Shown: piece after piece, positions 39,225 to 47,476 of the stretch
Position numbering within the stretch: the stretch's first letter is position 1
Layout: the number at the start of each line of letters is the position of its first letter
Source: Phormidesmis sp.
Lineage (GTDB): Bacteria; Cyanobacteriota; Cyanobacteriia; Leptolyngbyales; Leptolyngbyaceae
DNA length: 64,000 nucleotides
Assembly (NCBI GenBank): GCA_965248535.1
Contig: CBDFJR010000005.1
Coordinates: 2,144,001-2,208,000, forward strand
Direction: 5' to 3'
Translations under genes and position numbers: made by a program
Notes under the pieces: model-generated
Told to the model about the DNA's origin: nothing
What the model saw: only the letters and a program-made list of their open reading frames with translations
Databases searched by the model: none

Positions 39225-39272
39225 AAAAAATGAGAGATGAAGCAGATAGGTTGGTTTCACCTCCCATTTTTT
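39225..39272. terminator. Probable bidirectional terminator between glgC and aroF
   Basis: Imperfect hairpin aaaaaatgagagatgaagc...gtttcacctcccattttttt with A and T tails. Confidence 0.55.
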
Positions 39273-40128
39273 TAAGCGATCGCTAACTGGGGGCTTTGAG
39301 CCTCATAGACCTGACGACCGATCGCTTCGGCAACGGGCTTGAGACTGCGGACTAGACTCACCATGTCGTTGAGAGCTAACGCTTGACGGGCATCAGAAAC
39401 AGACTTTTCTGGCTCTGGGTGACACTCAATGATCAGACCGTCGGCACCACACGCGATCGCGCCACGAGATAGATCCGCGATCAGTTCTCGCTTTCCGGCG
39501 GCATGGCTGGGATCGACCATCACAGGTAAATGAGTGATTTGTTTGAGGGCGACGACGGCTCCTAAATCCAGCACGTTGCGAGTGTAGGGGTCAAAGCTGC
39601 GAATGCCTCGCTCGCACAGCACAACATTGGGGTTGCCGTGACTGACGATATATTCGGCGGCCATCACAAACTCCTCGATCGTCGCCGCCAACCCTCGCTT
39701 GAGCAAAATCGGCTTGTTGGCTTGTCCAACGGCTTTGAGCAGATCGAAGTTTTGCATATTGCGGCTGCCGATTTGCAGCATATCGGCATAGGCAGCGATT
39801 TCCTCGATCTGTGAAATGGCCATCACTTCAGTCACGACAGGCATCCCCGTAGCTGGTTGCGAACCTCTGCCAAGATTTCTAGCCCCTCGATGCCCATGCC
39901 CTGAAACGCATAGGGCGACGTGCGCGGCTTATAAACGCCACCTCGCAACGCTTGCACGGGCGCAAACTGAAGGTGACGGGCGACGGTTTCCATTTGCGTC
40001 AGGCTTTCGACGGTGCAGGGGCCGCCGATGACGACGATTTTTTGACCCCCGATCGCCACTCGCTCAGAGAGTTTAACGATCGTGTTCTGATTTGATTGAG
40101 ATTTAGCGACCAATTTTGCATCTTTCAT
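39272..40128 (-). CDS. aroF: DAHP synthase type I-beta, catalytic domain only; frameshift near 39845-39855 (error or pseudogene)
   Basis: ORF 40128-39832 (GGPCTVES, RGGVYKPRTSPYAFQG) plus ORF 39844-39272 (QIGSRNMQN, LKRG, CERG, DPSH, IECHP); AGGAG RBS at 40137-40141. Confidence 0.9.
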
Positions 40129-40148
40129 GACCTAGACTCCTAAATAAT

Positions 40149-40178
40149 AAAAAAGCCCGAAACCTTTGGGTTCCGGGC
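40149..40178 (-). terminator. Attenuator 2 intrinsic terminator
   Basis: RNA GCCCGGAACC-CAAA-GGUUUCGGGC-UUUUUU, immediately upstream of the aroF RBS. Confidence 0.9.
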
Positions 40179-40202
40179 CTGACGAACATTTGCACGACAG
40201 CT

Positions 40203-40265
40203 TCACCCAGAACTGGTTGGGATAAAAAAATAAAATCTAAATCGCCAGGAATTCAGGTGGAGCAT
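40203..40265 (-). CDS. Leader peptide 2, MLHLNSWRFRFYFFIPTSSG (Trp/Phe/Tyr-rich)
   Basis: 20-codon ORF with 6 aromatic codons in a run of 8; its 3' end is complementary to the left arm of the terminator. Confidence 0.8.
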   Translation of the reverse strand: MLHLNSWRFRFYFFIPTSSG

Positions 40266-40304
40266 CAGAGAAAAAACCGAATCAGGACATTTAATCAGGA
40301 CATT

Positions 40305-40332
40305 AAAAAACCGCAGAGGTTAGTCTGCGGTT
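40305..40332 (-). terminator. Attenuator 1 intrinsic terminator
   Basis: RNA AACCGCAGA-CUAACC-UCUGCGGUU-UUUU. Confidence 0.9.
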
Positions 40333-40359
40333 CACTGGGGCGCTCACAACGAACGACAT

Positions 40360-40413
40360 TCACCCCAAGTGAACCGCCTCGCGCCAAAAAAAGAAAAACG
40401 TGTTGTGAGACAT
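40360..40413 (-). CDS. Leader peptide 1, MSHNTFFFFWREAVHLG (Phe4-Trp)
   Basis: 17-codon ORF containing UUU UUC UUU UUU UGG; its 3' part pairs over about 16 bp with the terminator-proximal segment. Confidence 0.85.
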   Translation of the reverse strand: MSHNTFFFFWREAVHLG

Positions 40414-40445: not shown

Positions 40446-40474
40446 AACTTAACAGAGGAACTCGATCGCGTCAA
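40446..40474 (-). promoter_or_regulatory. Sigma70-type promoter of the leader-aroF transcript
   Basis: TTGACG (40474-40469), 17-nt spacer, TAAGTT (40451-40446) preceded by TGn. Confidence 0.65.
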
Positions 40475-40525
40475 GTACCTTAGATGAGGTTTGAAAAGTA
40501 TCGAAAGTTTCTTCGCTTCGTTGCC

Positions 40526-40583
40526 GTCCCGCCCGTGACTGCAAGTCCGGGCTAACGGGGCGAAACCCGTTTCAACGGGTTGA
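40526..40583. repeat. Cluster of short palindromes, REP/MITE-like remnant
   Basis: gcccg..cgggc and aacccgtt-tc-aacgggtt hairpins next to the truncation point of a vapC fragment. Confidence 0.45.
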
Positions 40584-40585
40584 AT

Positions 40586-40669
40586 TCAACTGCTACTAGG
40601 GATGACGCTGGGATTCGGTTGTTTCGCTGCGCCTTCTGAAAGGATACGGGTGTCGAGCAGATATATCAT
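40586..40669 (-). pseudogene. Truncated VapC/PIN toxin, N-terminal ~23 codons
   Basis: MIYLLDTRILSEGAAKQPNPSVIP matches the PIN start pattern YLLDTxxLSE..K..PNP.V; ATGA overlap with the upstream gene. Confidence 0.75.
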
Positions 40670-40902
40670 AGATTGACGCGATCGGGAATGGGACTTTGAT
40701 CGCGGGTGAGGTCGAGTTCACCACTGGCAAGCGCTTCAGCGAGGGGAGAATCTTGTAGGAATTCGACAAGACTTTGGTGAGTAGGTTGGGGAGTTGAGGC
40801 TGGATTGGAGGCGGAGAGACTTTCGCTGAGGAGTTGAATGAGCCGCTGTTTTTCTGCGGGTTCAAGACCAAGGAGTTGTTGTTCTAATTCTTGGGTGAGC
40901 AT
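40666..40902 (-). CDS. Putative VapB-like antitoxin
   Basis: 78 aa with a SLVEFLQDSPL...ELDLTRDQSP tail, coupled to the PIN fragment. Confidence 0.7.
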   Translation of the reverse strand: MLTQELEQQLLGLEPAEKQRLIQLLSESLSASNPASTPQPTHQSLVEFLQDSPLAEALASGELDLTRDQSPIPDRVNL

Positions 40903-40946
40903 GGGCGACGGGAATACATATTCACTTTCAGTTTATCGCTTCTGCT

Positions 40947-43900
40947 TCATTTCCATTGATTGCATACGTCGCGCATGGCATCGACCATGCCTCGGATGGC
41001 GGCGGCTCCGCCGAGATGTGCGATCGGGGGATGCAGCGTGGCGAGGTCTTGCATAAGATCGGCGCGGGTGCAGTGGGCAAGGAGGTGAAGGTGGGATTGC
41101 CAGTCGGGATACGGGAGTGTAGCAAGAGAAAGGCGAGGAAGATAGGATCGGAGGGTTGTGGCGCGGGTGAGCTTGTGGATGATGGCATGGATGGCATCAA
41201 GGGCTTGGGGCAGAAACACTTCAGGTAGCTCTTCAGCTAACCCACACAACCCTTCTGCACGCGCTTGCTCATTTTGGAATAGCGACAATATTTCTAGAAG
41301 TGCGGGCAGTAATGCTTCAGGCAATTGCTTAGCTACACCACCATCGCAAAATATATCTCCAAATTCCACATACTTTCGCTCAGTCTGAATCAACAACCAT
41401 AGCGCCTCAAACGCTTCAGTTAAATAAGCTGGGTCAGTTTGAATTAGAGCATAGAGAAACTCTAAAACAGCACGTTTAAACTCATCTTGGACTAATCGCG
41501 CCAATTCTAACCCTTTAGTAAAATAAGTTGAATCAATTTGTGCTAGGGAATGCAATGCCCACGCACGCATGAATTCATCCTGAATTGATCGTGCAGCCGA
41601 TGACAACTGGGCAAGGTCAGCATTGCTAACCTTAGCTAGATCACGCAATGCAGGGGCACGGTCTGTGATTTTAGACCATGCAAAGGCTTGCTCATCCTCA
41701 ATAGACTCGCCGCACTTAATGCTTCTGCAAAATATGTTTCGTCAATTTCCGCTAAGTCAATCAATCTAAGTGTACGGTTGTAGTTGTTCTGTTGTGATCG
41801 AGCCACGCTTAAAGCTTCTGCAAAGCAGATTTCGTCAATTTGGGCTAGGAAAGTGCTTAATATTCCTGCACGATCGGACTCATCCTGAATTAATCGTGCA
41901 GTATTCAATGCTTCCATGGAGTACGTTCTGTCAATTCGAGCTAAGACGCTCAATGCTCTTGCACGATCGGACTTATCCTGAATTAACCGTGCAGCATCCA
42001 ATGCTTCTGCAAAATATGCTCTGTCGATTCGAGCTAAAATGCTCAATGCTCTTGCACGATCGAACTGCATCCGAATTGAGCGGGCAGCATCCGATGCTTC
42101 TGCAAGATATGCTCTGTCGATTCGGACTAGTTTGAAGAGTGCCCTTGCCTGCTTGTCCTCATCGTGAATTGAGAATGCCACGTCCAACAATCTAGCAATA
42201 TCAGCAGTGTTCACTTCGGCTAAGATACTCAGTATCTTCACTTTTCGCATATTCCAAGGCTCAATCAACCTCTCCTTCTCAATTGCAAGAAATGCCGCTA
42301 ATGCTTCTGCAAAATAAGCTGGGTCAATTTTGGCCAAGACACTCAACGCCACCGCGCTCTCATGTTTATTTCTAATTGTTCGTGCTGTTGTCAATGCCTC
42401 AGTAAAATGAGTCGAGTCAGTTTTAGCTAGAGCAGTTAATATCATCGCCCGCCAGTACTCATCTTGAAGAGATCTCGCTGTCTCTGCTGAAAGATAAGTA
42501 TGGTCAATCTCAGCTAAGGTATCCATCACTTCTGAATGAAAGAATGGATGTTGAATTGACCGTACAGCATCTAATGCTTCTTCAAAATATGCGTTATTGA
42601 TTTTAGCTAGCGTACACAATGCTGTTGCACGGGCGGACGCGTTTTGAACTGACCGTACAGCGTCTAATGCTTCTTCAAAATAGGAATTATCAATTTTGGC
42701 TAGATCACTCAATGCCGATGCTCTATGACATTCGTCCTGTATTGATCGTGAGACCTCTATGGTCTCTGGCAAGTAAACTGAGTCAATCTGAGCTAATTTG
42801 TTCAATGATCTTGCGCGATCTCTCACATCTCGAATTGACCGTGCCACCCTCACCGCTTCTAACAGGTAGGCTGAGTCAACCTGGGTTAAGGCAGTCAATG
42901 CCATTGCAATGTTACTCTCATTCCGCAGTGATCGCGTCTTCTTAACCGCAAACCCAAAGATCGCCTTAGGCAAATACGACGCAAGTTTCTCAATCGCCTC
43001 AACAATATTCTCCTCATCCTGCATTTGCTCTACATATGCCCAAGCTTGCTCTGGTGTCCAATACTTACGCTTCACAAACTCTGCCATCATCCCGATCGGT
43101 AGATTCCCCACCAAACTATTCAGCGTTGCTGTAATCAATGCATATCGACACTGCAACACAATCGAGCGAGTATTATCTTGCTCATAACTTTCCTCTGCAA
43201 TTTGCCACCCTCGCTTCACATCCTGTACAAAAATCGCAGGTTGCCCCAGTCGATCGCACGCCTCAAACCAAGCATTCCGCCCCTGCTCATCACTCATCGC
43301 CATCAGCACATGAATCTCATCCTCTCGCCCCGCCTGCTGGAGATGCCACGTCAAATGGCGATGAATATATCCATCATTCGGCAACCGATCCCAGCGATCG
43401 CACTTTTGGCGATAGCGATCCAAGAATTGAGCATGAGCATCCGCAAGCGTTCGGATTGGAGCGCTGAGGGTTGCTTGTTCGATCAATCCCCGCGCCGTAT
43501 CGTGCATCAAATCATGCACCCGATAGGTTAGCTCCCCTTCCAATGTCTCCGTCCCACTGGTCAGAAACGATCGATTCCGCAGAGCAATTAATGCCTTCTT
43601 CGCTTTCAAGGGCGACAACTCCCACAGTGTCACCGCCATCCGCACATCCAGACTCACATCCTCTGGCAACACTCCTAACCACGCAAACTGCCGTAACTGT
43701 TCCGCACTCAACCGCCGCAAACTCAAATTAAAACAAGCCCGCAAACTATACTTGCGCTGCTGATTCTCATCCAGACAATCCCAAGCCTCCGAAGAATCCA
43801 ATACCTCCAACGCTACTGATCGCCGCTCTGTCTCAAACTCCGATCGCAACTCCCCCCAACTCAACCCATCCCGCACCTGATTCGCCGCCAAATCTAACGC

Positions 43901-44959
43901 CAACGGCAAATATCCCAACGACTTCGCAAACGCTTTTACTTCCGATTCCTGTTCCGGTTTCCACTGTCGTTTTAGCTTTTGCCGCACTAGCTCGATCGCT
44001 TCCACTTCCGACATCAAATCCAACAGATGATACTCCGCTCCCTCAATCTGCGCCTCCCGCGTCGTCACCAACACCCGACACGCTGCACCGCCCACCCGAA
44101 AATGCTCCACATGCGCCCCATTCCACACATCATCCACCACCAGCAACATTCGCTTTTCCAGTAGCACCGTCCGCAAATAACTTGAAGCCCATTCCAACGT
44201 CGTCGCCGAATAACTCTCCCGCGACTTATCCAACGTCCGAATCCAATCTCCCAGCAAATTTTGAAGGTCGGGATTCTGTCCCAGCGTCACCCACAAGATC
44301 CCATCTGCAAATCTCGTCTGCACCTCAGCATCTAGCACCAACGCTGTTGCCAACACCGATTTGCCCAATCCGCCTAAACCTGCGATCGCGCTCACCACTA
44401 ATGCCCGATCGTCCGTTGCCAACAGCTTCTGCTTCACCGCATCAAACGCTTTAGGACGCGGCACATAGTTCTCCGGCAACCGCACCCCTAGAGACGGCGC
44501 ACCCACCTTCAGTCCTGATTTCGGGCTTTGCTCTGGTAGAGCCTGCAATTTCGACTTGGGCGATCGCTTACTTTCCCAGAGCTTATCAAACGCTTCGAGA
44601 TTACGACTGATGTGTGTTGAACTTAACGTCAGCGTAAAATCCCACTGCGCCTCACCCTTTGTTTTCACGCGATGGTCATGCAAAATCCCCAGAAAATCCC
44701 GCATCGCCTCCAAGGCTTCCCGCACATTTGCGGTCGTCACAGTTGCCTGTCCGTCTTGATTGGTGACGTGCATCAAAGCTTGCAGTGTCGTCTCGATCGT
44801 CACCTTCTGACTTCCTGCTGCTTCATCCTGCCAGCGAAACTGTAATTTTTTTGAATCGCTGATCTCTCCTACTTTTGTCGCCTCCAAAATCCCCTTCAAC
44901 ACTTGACGGACACGAGCTTGCACGATCGGACCATGGGATTTTTTCTGAGAGCTAGGCAT
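40947..44959 (-). CDS. NLR-like STAND NTPase (N-terminal domain, NB-ARC, APAF1-like helical domain, 31-aa helical repeats); frameshift near 41705
   Basis: GLGGLGKS, LLVVDDVW, VLVTTR, GYLPLAL and VHDLMH motifs. Repeats such as ARSIQDESDRARALSxLAxID continue in ORF 41648-40947, and one added base restores AARSIEDE. Confidence 0.88.
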
Positions 44960-45541: not shown

Positions 45542-47476
45542 TTAATCGGCCACCAGTTCTGCCAGTTCTAGCCAGCGCTCTGTTGAGGTCTCGATCGTTT
45601 TTTCTAACTCTGCCATCCGCGCCGAAAGTTTTTCGACCTCCGAAAAGCTGTCAGGCGGAGTGCGATATAGCGTCTTTTCAAGGGTGGCTTTTTCAGCTTC
45701 CATTTGCGGAATTTTAGCTTCCAACGTTTCAAACTCACGCTTTTCTTTATAAGAGAGCTTTCGAGTCTTGTTAGTGATCGCCGGGGTTGCCGCCGTTGGT
45801 TGCTCTGGTTGTTTTGCAGACTTCTTATCAGACGCGTCCGTTTTTCCGCTAGCTGCGTCTTCTTCGGCTTTTCTATAGTCTAAATAAACCGAGTAGTTAC
45901 CGGGATATTGACGAATGTTGCCCCCTGGCTCAAGCGAGAAGATTGTATCGACCGTGCGATCGAGAAAGTAGCGATCGTGCGAAACCACAATCACGCAGCC
46001 GTTAAAGTCTTCTAAATATTCTTCTAAGATGGCTAACGTTTGCACATCTAAATCGTTAGTCGGCTCGTCTAAAATCAGCACATTGGGCGCACTTAAAAGA
46101 ACTTGCAGCAAAAATAATCGTCGTTTTTCGCCCCCAGACAGTTTGCTAATGGGCGAATATTGCTGACTTCCGGGGAACAAGAACTTCTCTAACATTTGAG
46201 ATGCTGTGATCACCGTCCCGTCTGCTAAAGTCACTAACTCTGCGGTTTCTTTAAGATAATCAATGACGCGCTGATCTTGATTGAGTGAGTTCAGCAAATC
46301 ATCCGAATGTTGATCAAAATAGCCAATGTGAATCGTGCTGCCGATGTCTACGGTGCCAGAGTCGGGCGTTAACCGTCCCGTTGCTAGATTCATTAACGTT
46401 GATTTTCCCGCACCGTTTGCGCCAATGATGCCCACCCGATCGTCAGGGCTAAACTCGTAGGTGAAATCTTTGATCAAAACACGATCGCCAAAGGATTTTG
46501 AGACATTCGTGATCTCAATTACTTTTTTACCAATGCGGCGACCTGCTGTTGCGATATCAACTTTGCCGTTGGCTTGTTTAAATTCACGATCGCGCATTTC
46601 GTGAACTCGATCAATCCGCGCTTTTTGTTTGGTGCTTCGCGCTTTGGGCCCTCGACTCAGCCACTCTAATTCACGCCGCAACACGCCCTGATGTTTGCGC
46701 TGAGTGCTGGCCGCCGATTCTTCAGCCAACACTTTTTTCTCTAGATAATAGGAATAATTTCCAGAGTAGGCATAGAGATCGCCGCGATCGATTTCTAAAA
46801 TGCGATTGGTGACGCGATCGAGAAAGTAGCGATCGTGAGTAATCAACAGCAGCGCCCCGCGATAGCGATTGAGATAGCTTTGCAGCCACTCGACCGAGAG
46901 CGCATCTAAATGGTTAGTCGGCTCATCCATCAGCAGCATTTCGGGCTGAGACAGCAGCGCCGTGGCCAGGGCAATGCGCTTGCGATAGCCGCCTGATAGG
47001 TCACCAATTCGGGCGCTCAGATCTTCGATGCCTAGCTTGGTGAGAATAATTTTGGCATTAGTTTCGAGTTCCCAGGCTCCGGTCGAGTCCATTTTTTCAG
47101 ACACGTCTGAAAACCGCGCCATGATTTGGGCTTGGTCGCCTTGCCCGTGGGCTAATTTGTCAGAAAGCTCTTCATATTCGCGCACTAGTGCCATTTGGTC
47201 GCCGCTATCGGCAAACACTTGCTCAAGCACGGTGTGGTTTTCGTCGATTTCGGGCTGCTGTGGCAGATAAACGAGTCGCGCACTGGGGTTGACGAGCCGT
47301 TGTCCAGCGTCGATCGACTCCAATCCGGCGATCATTTTGAGCAGGGTTGATTTGCCAGACCCGTTGGTGCCAATCAGCCCCACCTTGTCGCCTTCTTCAA
47401 CGGTGAAGCTGGCATCTTTCAGCAATTCTTTAATGCCGAAGTCTTTTTTGATCGATCGAAGGGTAAGCAGACTCAT
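45542..47476 (-). CDS. ABC-F family ATPase (Uup-like)
   Basis: Two ABC cassettes (GTNGSGKS/LSGG/DEPTNHLD and GANGAGKS/LSGGE/DEPTNDLD), no TM domain, KLSYKEKRE C-terminal coiled coil. Confidence 0.93.
   Translation of the reverse strand: MSLLTLRSIKKDFGIKELLKDASFTVEEGDKVGLIGTNGSGKSTLLKMIAGLESIDAGQRLVNPSARLVYLPQQPEIDENHTVLEQVFADSGDQMALVREYEELSDKLAHGQGDQAQIMARFSDVSEKMDSTGAWELETNAKIILTKLGIEDLSARIGDLSGGYRKRIALATALLSQPEMLLMDEPTNHLDALSVEWLQSYLNRYRGALLLITHDRYFLDRVTNRILEIDRGDLYAYSGNYSYYLEKKVLAEESAASTQRKHQGVLRRELEWLSRGPKARSTKQKARIDRVHEMRDREFKQANGKVDIATAGRRIGKKVIEITNVSKSFGDRVLIKDFTYEFSPDDRVGIIGANGAGKSTLMNLATGRLTPDSGTVDIGSTIHIGYFDQHSDDLLNSLNQDQRVIDYLKETAELVTLADGTVITASQMLEKFLFPGSQQYSPISKLSGGEKRRLFLLQVLLSAPNVLILDEPTNDLDVQTLAILEEYLEDFNGCVIVVSHDRYFLDRTVDTIFSLEPGGNIRQYPGNYSVYLDYRKAEEDAASGKTDASDKKSAKQPEQPTAATPAITNKTRKLSYKEKREFETLEAKIPQMEAEKATLEKTLYRTPPDSFSEVEKLSARMAELEKTIETSTERWLELAELVAD

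Follow-up and report, generated by a model that had tools for sequence, protein, structure and literature searches.

Tandem putative attenuators with mixed Trp, Phe and Tyr control codons upstream of a short DAHP synthase gene in cyanobacteria

A short DAHP synthase gene on the minus strand of the 64,000-nucleotide stretch of Phormidesmis sp. DNA analyzed here (the window) is preceded by two leader-terminator units in series. Comparison of homologues and RNA modelling indicate that these are very probably tandem ribosome-mediated transcription attenuators, which would sense charged tRNA-Trp, tRNA-Phe and tRNA-Tyr and control an extra DAHP synthase that has no allosteric domain. Our analysis centers on the unit next to the gene (unit 2), which an earlier note had picked out from the DNA letters. 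This unit is a real element with a defined anatomy, conserved across homologues, with covarying helices and a fixed geometry; the caveats attach to the generality of some of its features and not to its coordinates. From these properties we infer that the leader is translated, that ribosomes stall within it, that transcription and translation are coupled and that termination is regulated in vivo.

Results

Unit 2 begins with a leader ATG at 40265 on the minus strand and its leader stops with TGA at 40205-40203 (Table 1). Sequence reading and folding put the leader ORF, the pairings and the terminator where the earlier note had placed them. GUUCUGGGU (40213-40205) pairs with GCCCGGAAC (40178-40170) and the stretch folds at -18.9 kcal/mol, and CCUGGCGA and UCGUCAGG are likewise complementary in this genome. 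The region 40129-40300 as a whole folds with z = -3.45, one of 200 shuffles being as good, and unit-2 terminators scored on sequence features over 77 loci average -16.2 kcal/mol. Across 75 loci, aromatic residues make up 0.76 of the control block in frame, 0.26 and 0.16 in the other two frames (a comparison that favors frame 0, in which the block was defined) and 0.079 in the genome background. Of the 671 terminator-like sites scanned across the genome, some have an amino-acid-rich ORF upstream; within this set of candidates the two units have the best and second-best antiterminator duplex energies, and this heuristic scan found no other convincing amino-acid attenuator in the genome. An Arg-rich short ORF with a terminator-like hairpin lies before an aspartate-kinase-like ORF at G000:C2:365378 (+); its antiterminator duplex is weak (-7.0) and the arrangement is probably due to chance. 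None of 4227 Rfam families matched the window at gathering score.

Table 1. Features of the two units, their predicted promoter and the downstream gene (window coordinates)
Feature	Position	Strand	Basis
-35 box TTGACG of the predicted promoter common to both units	40469..40474	-	conservation across loci
Putative -10 box TAAGTT, TG before it, 17 nt after the -35 box	40446..40451	-	conservation
Leader ORF 1, MSHNTFFFFWREAVHLG	40360..40413	-	homologous ORF in 76/79 loci
Unit 1 antiterminator helix, 40377-40363 with 40340-40327	40327..40377	-	85.7% of cells paired
Unit 1 intrinsic terminator, stem 40332-40309, plus U tract	40303..40332	-	99.5% of cells paired
Leader ORF 2, MLHLNSWRFRFYFFIPTSSG, 20 codons	40203..40265	-	homologous unit in 77/79 loci
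Control codons W-R-F-R-F-Y-F-F	40224..40247	-	6 aromatic codons among 8
Segment 1, start-codon region pairing with the GGG-stop region; proposed anti-antiterminator	40251..40265	-	pairing across homologues
Segment 2, GUUCUGGGU, 5' strand of the antiterminator, overlapping the last codons and stop	40205..40213	-	93.1% of cells paired
Segment 3, GCCCGGAAC, shared by the antiterminator (3' strand) and the terminator (5' arm)	40170..40178	-	pairing of both helices
Unit 2 intrinsic terminator, stem 40178-40155 and U6 40154-40149	40149..40178	-	-17.0 kcal/mol
'Protector' of the earlier note, CCUGGCGA 40249-40242 with UCGUCAGG 40185-40178	40178..40249	-	complementary here, genus-restricted
AGGAG before the DAHP synthase gene, Shine-Dalgarno-like, not within the terminator stem	40137..40141	-	sequence
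Short type I-beta DAHP synthase gene without N-terminal regulatory domain, ATG at 40128	39272..40128	-	TIGR01361, PRK08673

DAHP synthase is the first enzyme of the pathway to exactly Trp, Phe and Tyr. The genome has two paralogues, one long and one short. With homologues L002 (short) and L024 (long) as stand-ins, the short form has only the PF00793 (and NeuB) match and the long form adds an N-terminal ferredoxin-like domain, PF18152; the short form aligns to 1rzm from residue 67 only (residues 67-337). We take the PF18152 domain to mediate feedback inhibition of DAHP synthase, and the short enzyme is accordingly expected to escape it. NCBIfam models TIGR01361 and PRK08673 match both halves of the short gene, which is split in the assembly by two extra bases near 39851 (window 39849-39854). 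The extra bases are missing in five relatives and in the listed, near-identical contigs of runs X1 and X2 (both from one study) that span the site, and one contig per run shows no other difference over 124 bases around it. Because near-identical public contigs do not have these bases, the frameshift is probably an assembly error, which is the likeliest cause; a strain-specific lesion is a possible but less likely alternative. A Shine-Dalgarno-like 4-mer precedes 70 of 79 DAHP synthase orthologues. We rejected a trp or aro operon context, as no conserved same-strand gene follows the DAHP synthase gene.

Three further features lie on the far side of the promoter in the window. The interval 40475-40930, immediately upstream of the promoter, has partial copies, 91-94% identical, at four other places in the genome. 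The interval 40947-44959 encodes an NB-ARC-like protein of 1107 aa with a long helical-repeat tail and weak AfsR and FxSxx_TPR matches, and then a 233-aa ORF that has similar repeats and matches no family. By sequence appearance, 45542-47476 is an ABC-F-like ATPase ORF of 644 aa.

The distribution of the units was assessed over 79 cyanobacterial short-form DAHP synthase loci, among which related genomes are not independent, and 74 of these have both units. Two loci have unit 1 only (L084, L090) and two have unit 2 only (L088, L089). In L040, leader 2 is interrupted just before FYFW by an insertion (L040:1144-1284), which we take to be unrelated sequence resembling a mobile-element end, and unit 1 was not found within 700 nt. 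Leader 2 of L079 has no clear start codon. The segment-2 stop codon is lost in two loci (L073:2318-2440 and L086:2300-2432), where leader 2 runs into or through the terminator; these two are natural test cases for an attenuator model. The unit-1 leaders of L038 and L081 stop before the VHxE tail and keep the RNA elements. In L108, L110 and L112, leader 2 is apparently longer, at some 54 codons, and keeps the aromatic block and the SSG tail at its 3' end. A decayed locus, L220 (G080:C49:72539-75655), has an intact promoter and leader 1; a deletion after these has taken out the first terminator, the whole of unit 2 and the 5' end of the gene, and a DAHP synthase fragment is retained. The leader-terminator pattern was absent, as judged by eye, at all nine long-paralogue loci.

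Genomes and named loci were also searched with an RNA model for each unit. The unit-2 model matched in 39 of 101 genomes of the class, once in each, and all 17 examined matches outside the training set precede a short DAHP synthase (8 further new matches fall outside this count). Each model matched 78 of 80 named loci from Nostoc, Calothrix, Scytonema, Fischerella, Microcoleus, Coleofasciculus and other genera, some of which may be training genomes and whose kin are not independent; at the two loci missed, the upstream sequence is only 102 and 47 bases long. In the genome of the window both models found only this locus, plus one partial match (E 0.33). The unit-1 model matched twice (E 0.03-0.04) in a set of 67 genomes from other classes of the phylum, neither time with a leader ORF or a downstream DAHP synthase, and divergent versions could escape the model.

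Helices were compared over 53 of 77 unit-2 and 51 of 76 unit-1 sequences, with close relatives from over-represented genera and L040 left out. The unit-2 antiterminator is paired in 93.1% of 477 cells with 14 compensatory cells, compared with 11-62% for slid controls, over which every tested helix is favored because it was taken from the window's own sequence; none of 500 shuffles scored as high. In an alignment-free test (L079 left out) this helix beat shuffles in 52 of 52 sequences. The unit-2 terminator is paired in 92.6% of cells with 28 compensatory cells, slid controls reaching at most 62%, and the U tract after its stem is conserved. The earlier note had proposed a covariation analysis across homologous leaders, and both antiterminator and terminator do covary.

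A different outcome was obtained for the pairing of 40249-40242 with 40185-40178, which the earlier note had presented as a protector. The complementarity stands and is strong only in the window's genus, and as a conserved element the pairing fails: 42.9% of cells are paired across homologues versus 20-47% in slid controls, which is at chance although the choice of helices from the window's own sequence favored it too. In the alignment-free test (again with L079 left out) it outscored its shuffles for 6 of 52 sequences, of which four or more (L001-L003, L005) belong to the window's genus; its modelled probability in the free transcript of this genome is 0.0. A helix between the start-codon region and the GGG-stop region is paired in 71% of cells with 43 compensatory cells (slid controls 31-50%) and has a modelled probability of 0.79 in the free transcript of this genome. 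With five loci without a canonical start or stop left out, it beat shuffles in 23 of 48 sequences and its own pairing exceeded cross-species pairing in 36 of 48; with a narrower window it beat shuffles in 12 of 52. This start/stop helix is a good candidate for the anti-antiterminator and fits better than the proposed protector, while not being universal.

Unit 1 has a comparable set of elements. Its antiterminator shows compensatory change in 10 of 15 pairs, and its pairing (Table 1) compares with 31-49% in slid controls. The corresponding unit-1 protector was rejected as a conserved element (62.2% of cells paired versus 23-66% in slid controls). A small hairpin over the unit-1 stop codon (40354-40375) pairs in 90.4% of cells with no covariation above shuffles. 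The unit-1 stop is TGA in 69 of 76 loci; the hairpin could account for this preference and may serve to pause the polymerase. A TTGAC box stands 30-160 nt ahead of the first leader at 76 of 79 loci, with a TG-(T/C)TA-like box about 17 nt further downstream; between the units, TTGAC is present in 2 of 74 spacers. A consensus promoter scan returned nothing at its threshold. Since the conserved promoter escaped it too, the scan is uninformative on internal promoters.

The unit-2 leader shows signs of constraint both as a coding sequence and as RNA. Leader length changes keep the frame in 50 of 52 unit-2 rows and 50 of 50 unit-1 rows. Leader 2 starts with ATG in 73 of 75 loci, its stop is at a fixed place in 71 of 75, and a spacing of 13 nt separates the end of the last aromatic codon from the segment-2 anchor in 65 of 75. 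Aromatic codons average 7.4 per unit-2 leader (75 loci) and vary synonymously (TTC 49, TAC 84, TAT 78), TTT being the commonest control codon (223/558). At the 71 of 77 loci compared, every codon used for the terminal Ser-Gly keeps the pairing intact (GGG in 70 of 71; TCC, TCT, CCC and ACC), and the Ser switches to Pro or Thr where pairing permits. Because only pairing-preserving codons are used, the tail of the leader is constrained as RNA. Both leaders end in GGG UGA in the window, as had been noted; this is not general, since unit-2 stops are TAA in 47, TGA in 17 and TAG in 11 of 75 loci. An SD-like motif precedes only 17 of 75 unit-2 leaders and one of 75 unit-1 leaders, which weakens the case for leader translation. 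Covariation, frame-preserving length changes and fixed spacing uphold the earlier suggestion that selection has kept a ribosome-dependent attenuator.

To model the effect of a ribosome, transcripts were cut in the terminator loop, a footprint of one of two assumed sizes was masked and the remainder was folded. Averaged over loci, the antiterminator had a modelled probability of 0.57-0.93 as long as the stalled ribosome was at least one codon short of the last aromatic codon; this fell to 0.38-0.59 with the ribosome on that codon and to 0.0 three codons further on. For the genome of the window it was 0.96-0.99 for stalls from W7 to F14, 0.0 at T17 or the stop codon and 0.18 without a ribosome. 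When no ribosome was included, the modelled state was open for unit 1 at 74 of 76 loci and for unit 2 at 37 of 75, the lower figure for unit 2 being due to the start/stop helix. With the complete transcript at equilibrium, all modelled states favor the terminator (P 0.98-1.0). Given this dominance of the terminator in the complete RNA, the switch must be kinetic and dependent on co-transcriptional timing.

The relationship between the two units was also considered. The earlier note had stressed that unit 2 holds all three aromatic codons; this does not set it apart, as Phe, Tyr and Trp are all present in 69 of 76 unit-1 and 72 of 75 unit-2 leaders, and the Tyr-less unit 1 of the window is a lineage exception. 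Because nearly all leaders of both units carry the three aromatics, there is, from their codon content, no general division of labor between the units. The claim that the two share one architecture holds for the leader, antiterminator and terminator but not for the modelled default state (open 74/76 versus 37/75) or for the start/stop helix of unit 2. The further claim, of little sequence identity and no recent duplication, was also partly sustained. Set against locally shuffled controls, the linkers gave the better alignment in only 3 of 44 genomes, and recent duplication or concerted evolution was rejected as unlikely on this basis; whole units gave it in 30 of 44, the functional segments being more alike than had been supposed. 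Cross-matches between the two RNA models are weak (12-25 bits versus 53-113 bits for self). Ancient duplication and convergence are both possible on these sequence comparisons.

Discussion

The mechanism that we favor can be laid out with the four-segment scheme known for trpL and pheL of E. coli. The whole transcript would start from a single promoter ahead of unit 1, which is predicted from conservation. A ribosome would load on leader 2 and, when charged tRNA-Trp, tRNA-Phe or tRNA-Tyr is scarce, stall in the W-R-F-R-F-Y-F-F block. The stalled ribosome would block the start/stop helix and leave segment 2 free to pair with segment 3, in which case no terminator would form and RNA polymerase would continue into the DAHP synthase gene. 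With the tRNAs charged, the ribosome would reach the stop codon within segment 2 and mask that segment, and the terminator would form. In the absence of leader-2 translation, the start/stop helix may hold segment 2, giving termination by default, as modelled here and in about half of the loci. Since both units must be passed, their read-through probabilities should multiply. In this way attenuation would replace allosteric feedback on the short enzyme.

Four other explanations were considered; for each, the agreement with the spacing, the codon pattern or the direction of control is poorer than for attenuation. The first is that a free aromatic amino acid or metabolite arrests the ribosome through the exit tunnel, as with the nascent-peptide-sensing leader TnaC, and that this arrest sets the RNA switch. 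In its favor, residue order differs little between genera (W-F-Y-G-F-Y-F-W), and Pro follows the aromatic block in 45 of 71 leaders. Nevertheless, we consider this quite improbable: stalling leads to read-through, so arrest induced by a product would turn a biosynthetic gene on when that product is abundant. Moreover, the residues after the block vary freely with the tail constrained by pairing, and the shortened unit-1 leaders of L038 and L081 lack the VHxE tail yet keep the RNA elements.

It could also be that coupling is too loose for attenuation and that the switch works on the DAHP synthase mRNA after transcription, the leaders and hairpins setting how well it is translated or how stable it is. 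According to the available portions of two reports, uncoupled 'runaway' transcription may be widespread in bacteria (PMC7858274) and canonical intrinsic termination accounts for a minority of cyanobacterial transcript ends (PMC12642595). We give this post-transcriptional alternative little credence, in that the Shine-Dalgarno sequence of the gene is outside the stem, the distance from unit 2 to the start codon ranges among loci from about 50 to more than 200 nt, and the conserved U tract after the stem fits termination.

A UTP-sensing attenuator of the pyrBI type, in which the U-rich block is a UTP-responsive polymerase pause and the aromatic codons are a by-product, is very improbable. While the block is indeed very U-rich, with TTT its commonest control codon, the TTT share of Phe codons (82%) is about that of the genome (78%; 27834/35624), Trp and Tyr codons interrupt the U run in frame in nearly all loci, and the downstream gene belongs to aromatic and not pyrimidine synthesis. 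Finally, that unit 2 is merely a constitutive leaky terminator, or a source of a functional small RNA or peptide with no switch, is hardly credible despite the terminator being the most stable state of the complete RNA and despite a precedent in Sinorhizobium, where in the available account released attenuator RNA and leader peptide act in trans, because it gives no reason for a covarying competing helix or a fixed codon spacing and because unit 2 is the sole unit in L088 and L089. A trans role of the released RNA or peptide could be additional to the switch.

Returning to tandem attenuation, the modelling raises a more speculative idea, which we consider possible but rather doubtful: in many cyanobacteria the two units may read the same three tRNAs with opposite defaults, unit 1 being open without a ribosome and unit 2 closed unless it is translated and the ribosome stalls. 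If this is correct, the feedback-free DAHP synthase would be made only in a real aromatic shortage and not upon a general shutdown of translation, and the response would be sharpened. It would also amount to direct evidence for functional transcription-translation coupling in a phylum without Rho.

Cyanobacteria lack Rho, and only 22% of the defined transcript ends in the cyanobacterial data of PMC12642595 resemble canonical intrinsic terminators, as given in the available part of that paper; this figure tells against our reading. The accessible text of PMC4833913 states that there are no reliable data on attenuation in cyanobacteria, the corresponding parts of PMC2965389, PMC5314783 and PMC11109978 do not mention cyanobacteria, and the table of putative attenuators in PMC1173090 has no cyanobacterial entry. 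Our literature search, which covered mostly open papers and, of survey supplements, a single file, found no published description of the cyanobacterial element, and it may have been predicted before. Placed ahead of a gene of central metabolism, an attenuator that is conserved and covaries would close this gap and would account for the restraint of an enzyme copy that has no allosteric domain. The leader would provide a ready reporter for ribosome-RNA polymerase coupling in cyanobacteria, and two attenuators in series for the same signal, together with natural single-unit variants, offer a direct test of whether stacking sharpens a response. The mechanism itself is textbook and the surprise is limited to that extent.

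Several known systems resemble this one in part, as judged from the available portions of the papers cited. The closest is the aroR-aroF attenuator of Corynebacterium glutamicum (Neshat et al. 2014), which also has an aromatic-codon leader peptide upstream of a DAHP synthase gene: its leader contains Phe-Tyr-Phe and stalling raises transcription (PMC11802643). That system is a single unit with three control codons and is reported to respond to Phe but not Tyr (PMC11802643), whereas the cyanobacterial system, in another phylum, has two units, each with 4-10 aromatic codons including Trp. E. coli trpL and pheL likewise combine control codons with a U-tract terminator and with an antiterminator that reaches into the last part of the leader ORF; each responds to one amino acid through one unit (PMC11802643, PMC3641672). 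In contrast to these, segment 1 is here the start-codon region and not the control codons. In Acholeplasma, the uORFC-13-1 motif before aroF also combines a predicted uORF containing Phe codons with a terminator, and it is likewise computational (PMC8632094). It is confined in the available text to Acholeplasma and environmental sequences, and it is a single unit with a U run coding for at least one Phe and no Trp/Phe/Tyr block; one supplement file of the same paper held no match to the cyanobacterial element. The mgtCBR leader of Salmonella provides precedent for two leader ORFs, mgtM and mgtP, each with its own RNA switch in one leader (PMC3641672). These respond additively to different signals (ATP and proline) and have no intrinsic terminators (PMC3641672), unlike the two cyanobacterial units, which by codon content carry the same three codon types and each end in an intrinsic terminator. 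Set beside trpL, pheL and Corynebacterium aroR, the proposed mechanism is a known one, and what appears to be new is its tandem, trivalent, cyanobacterial form.
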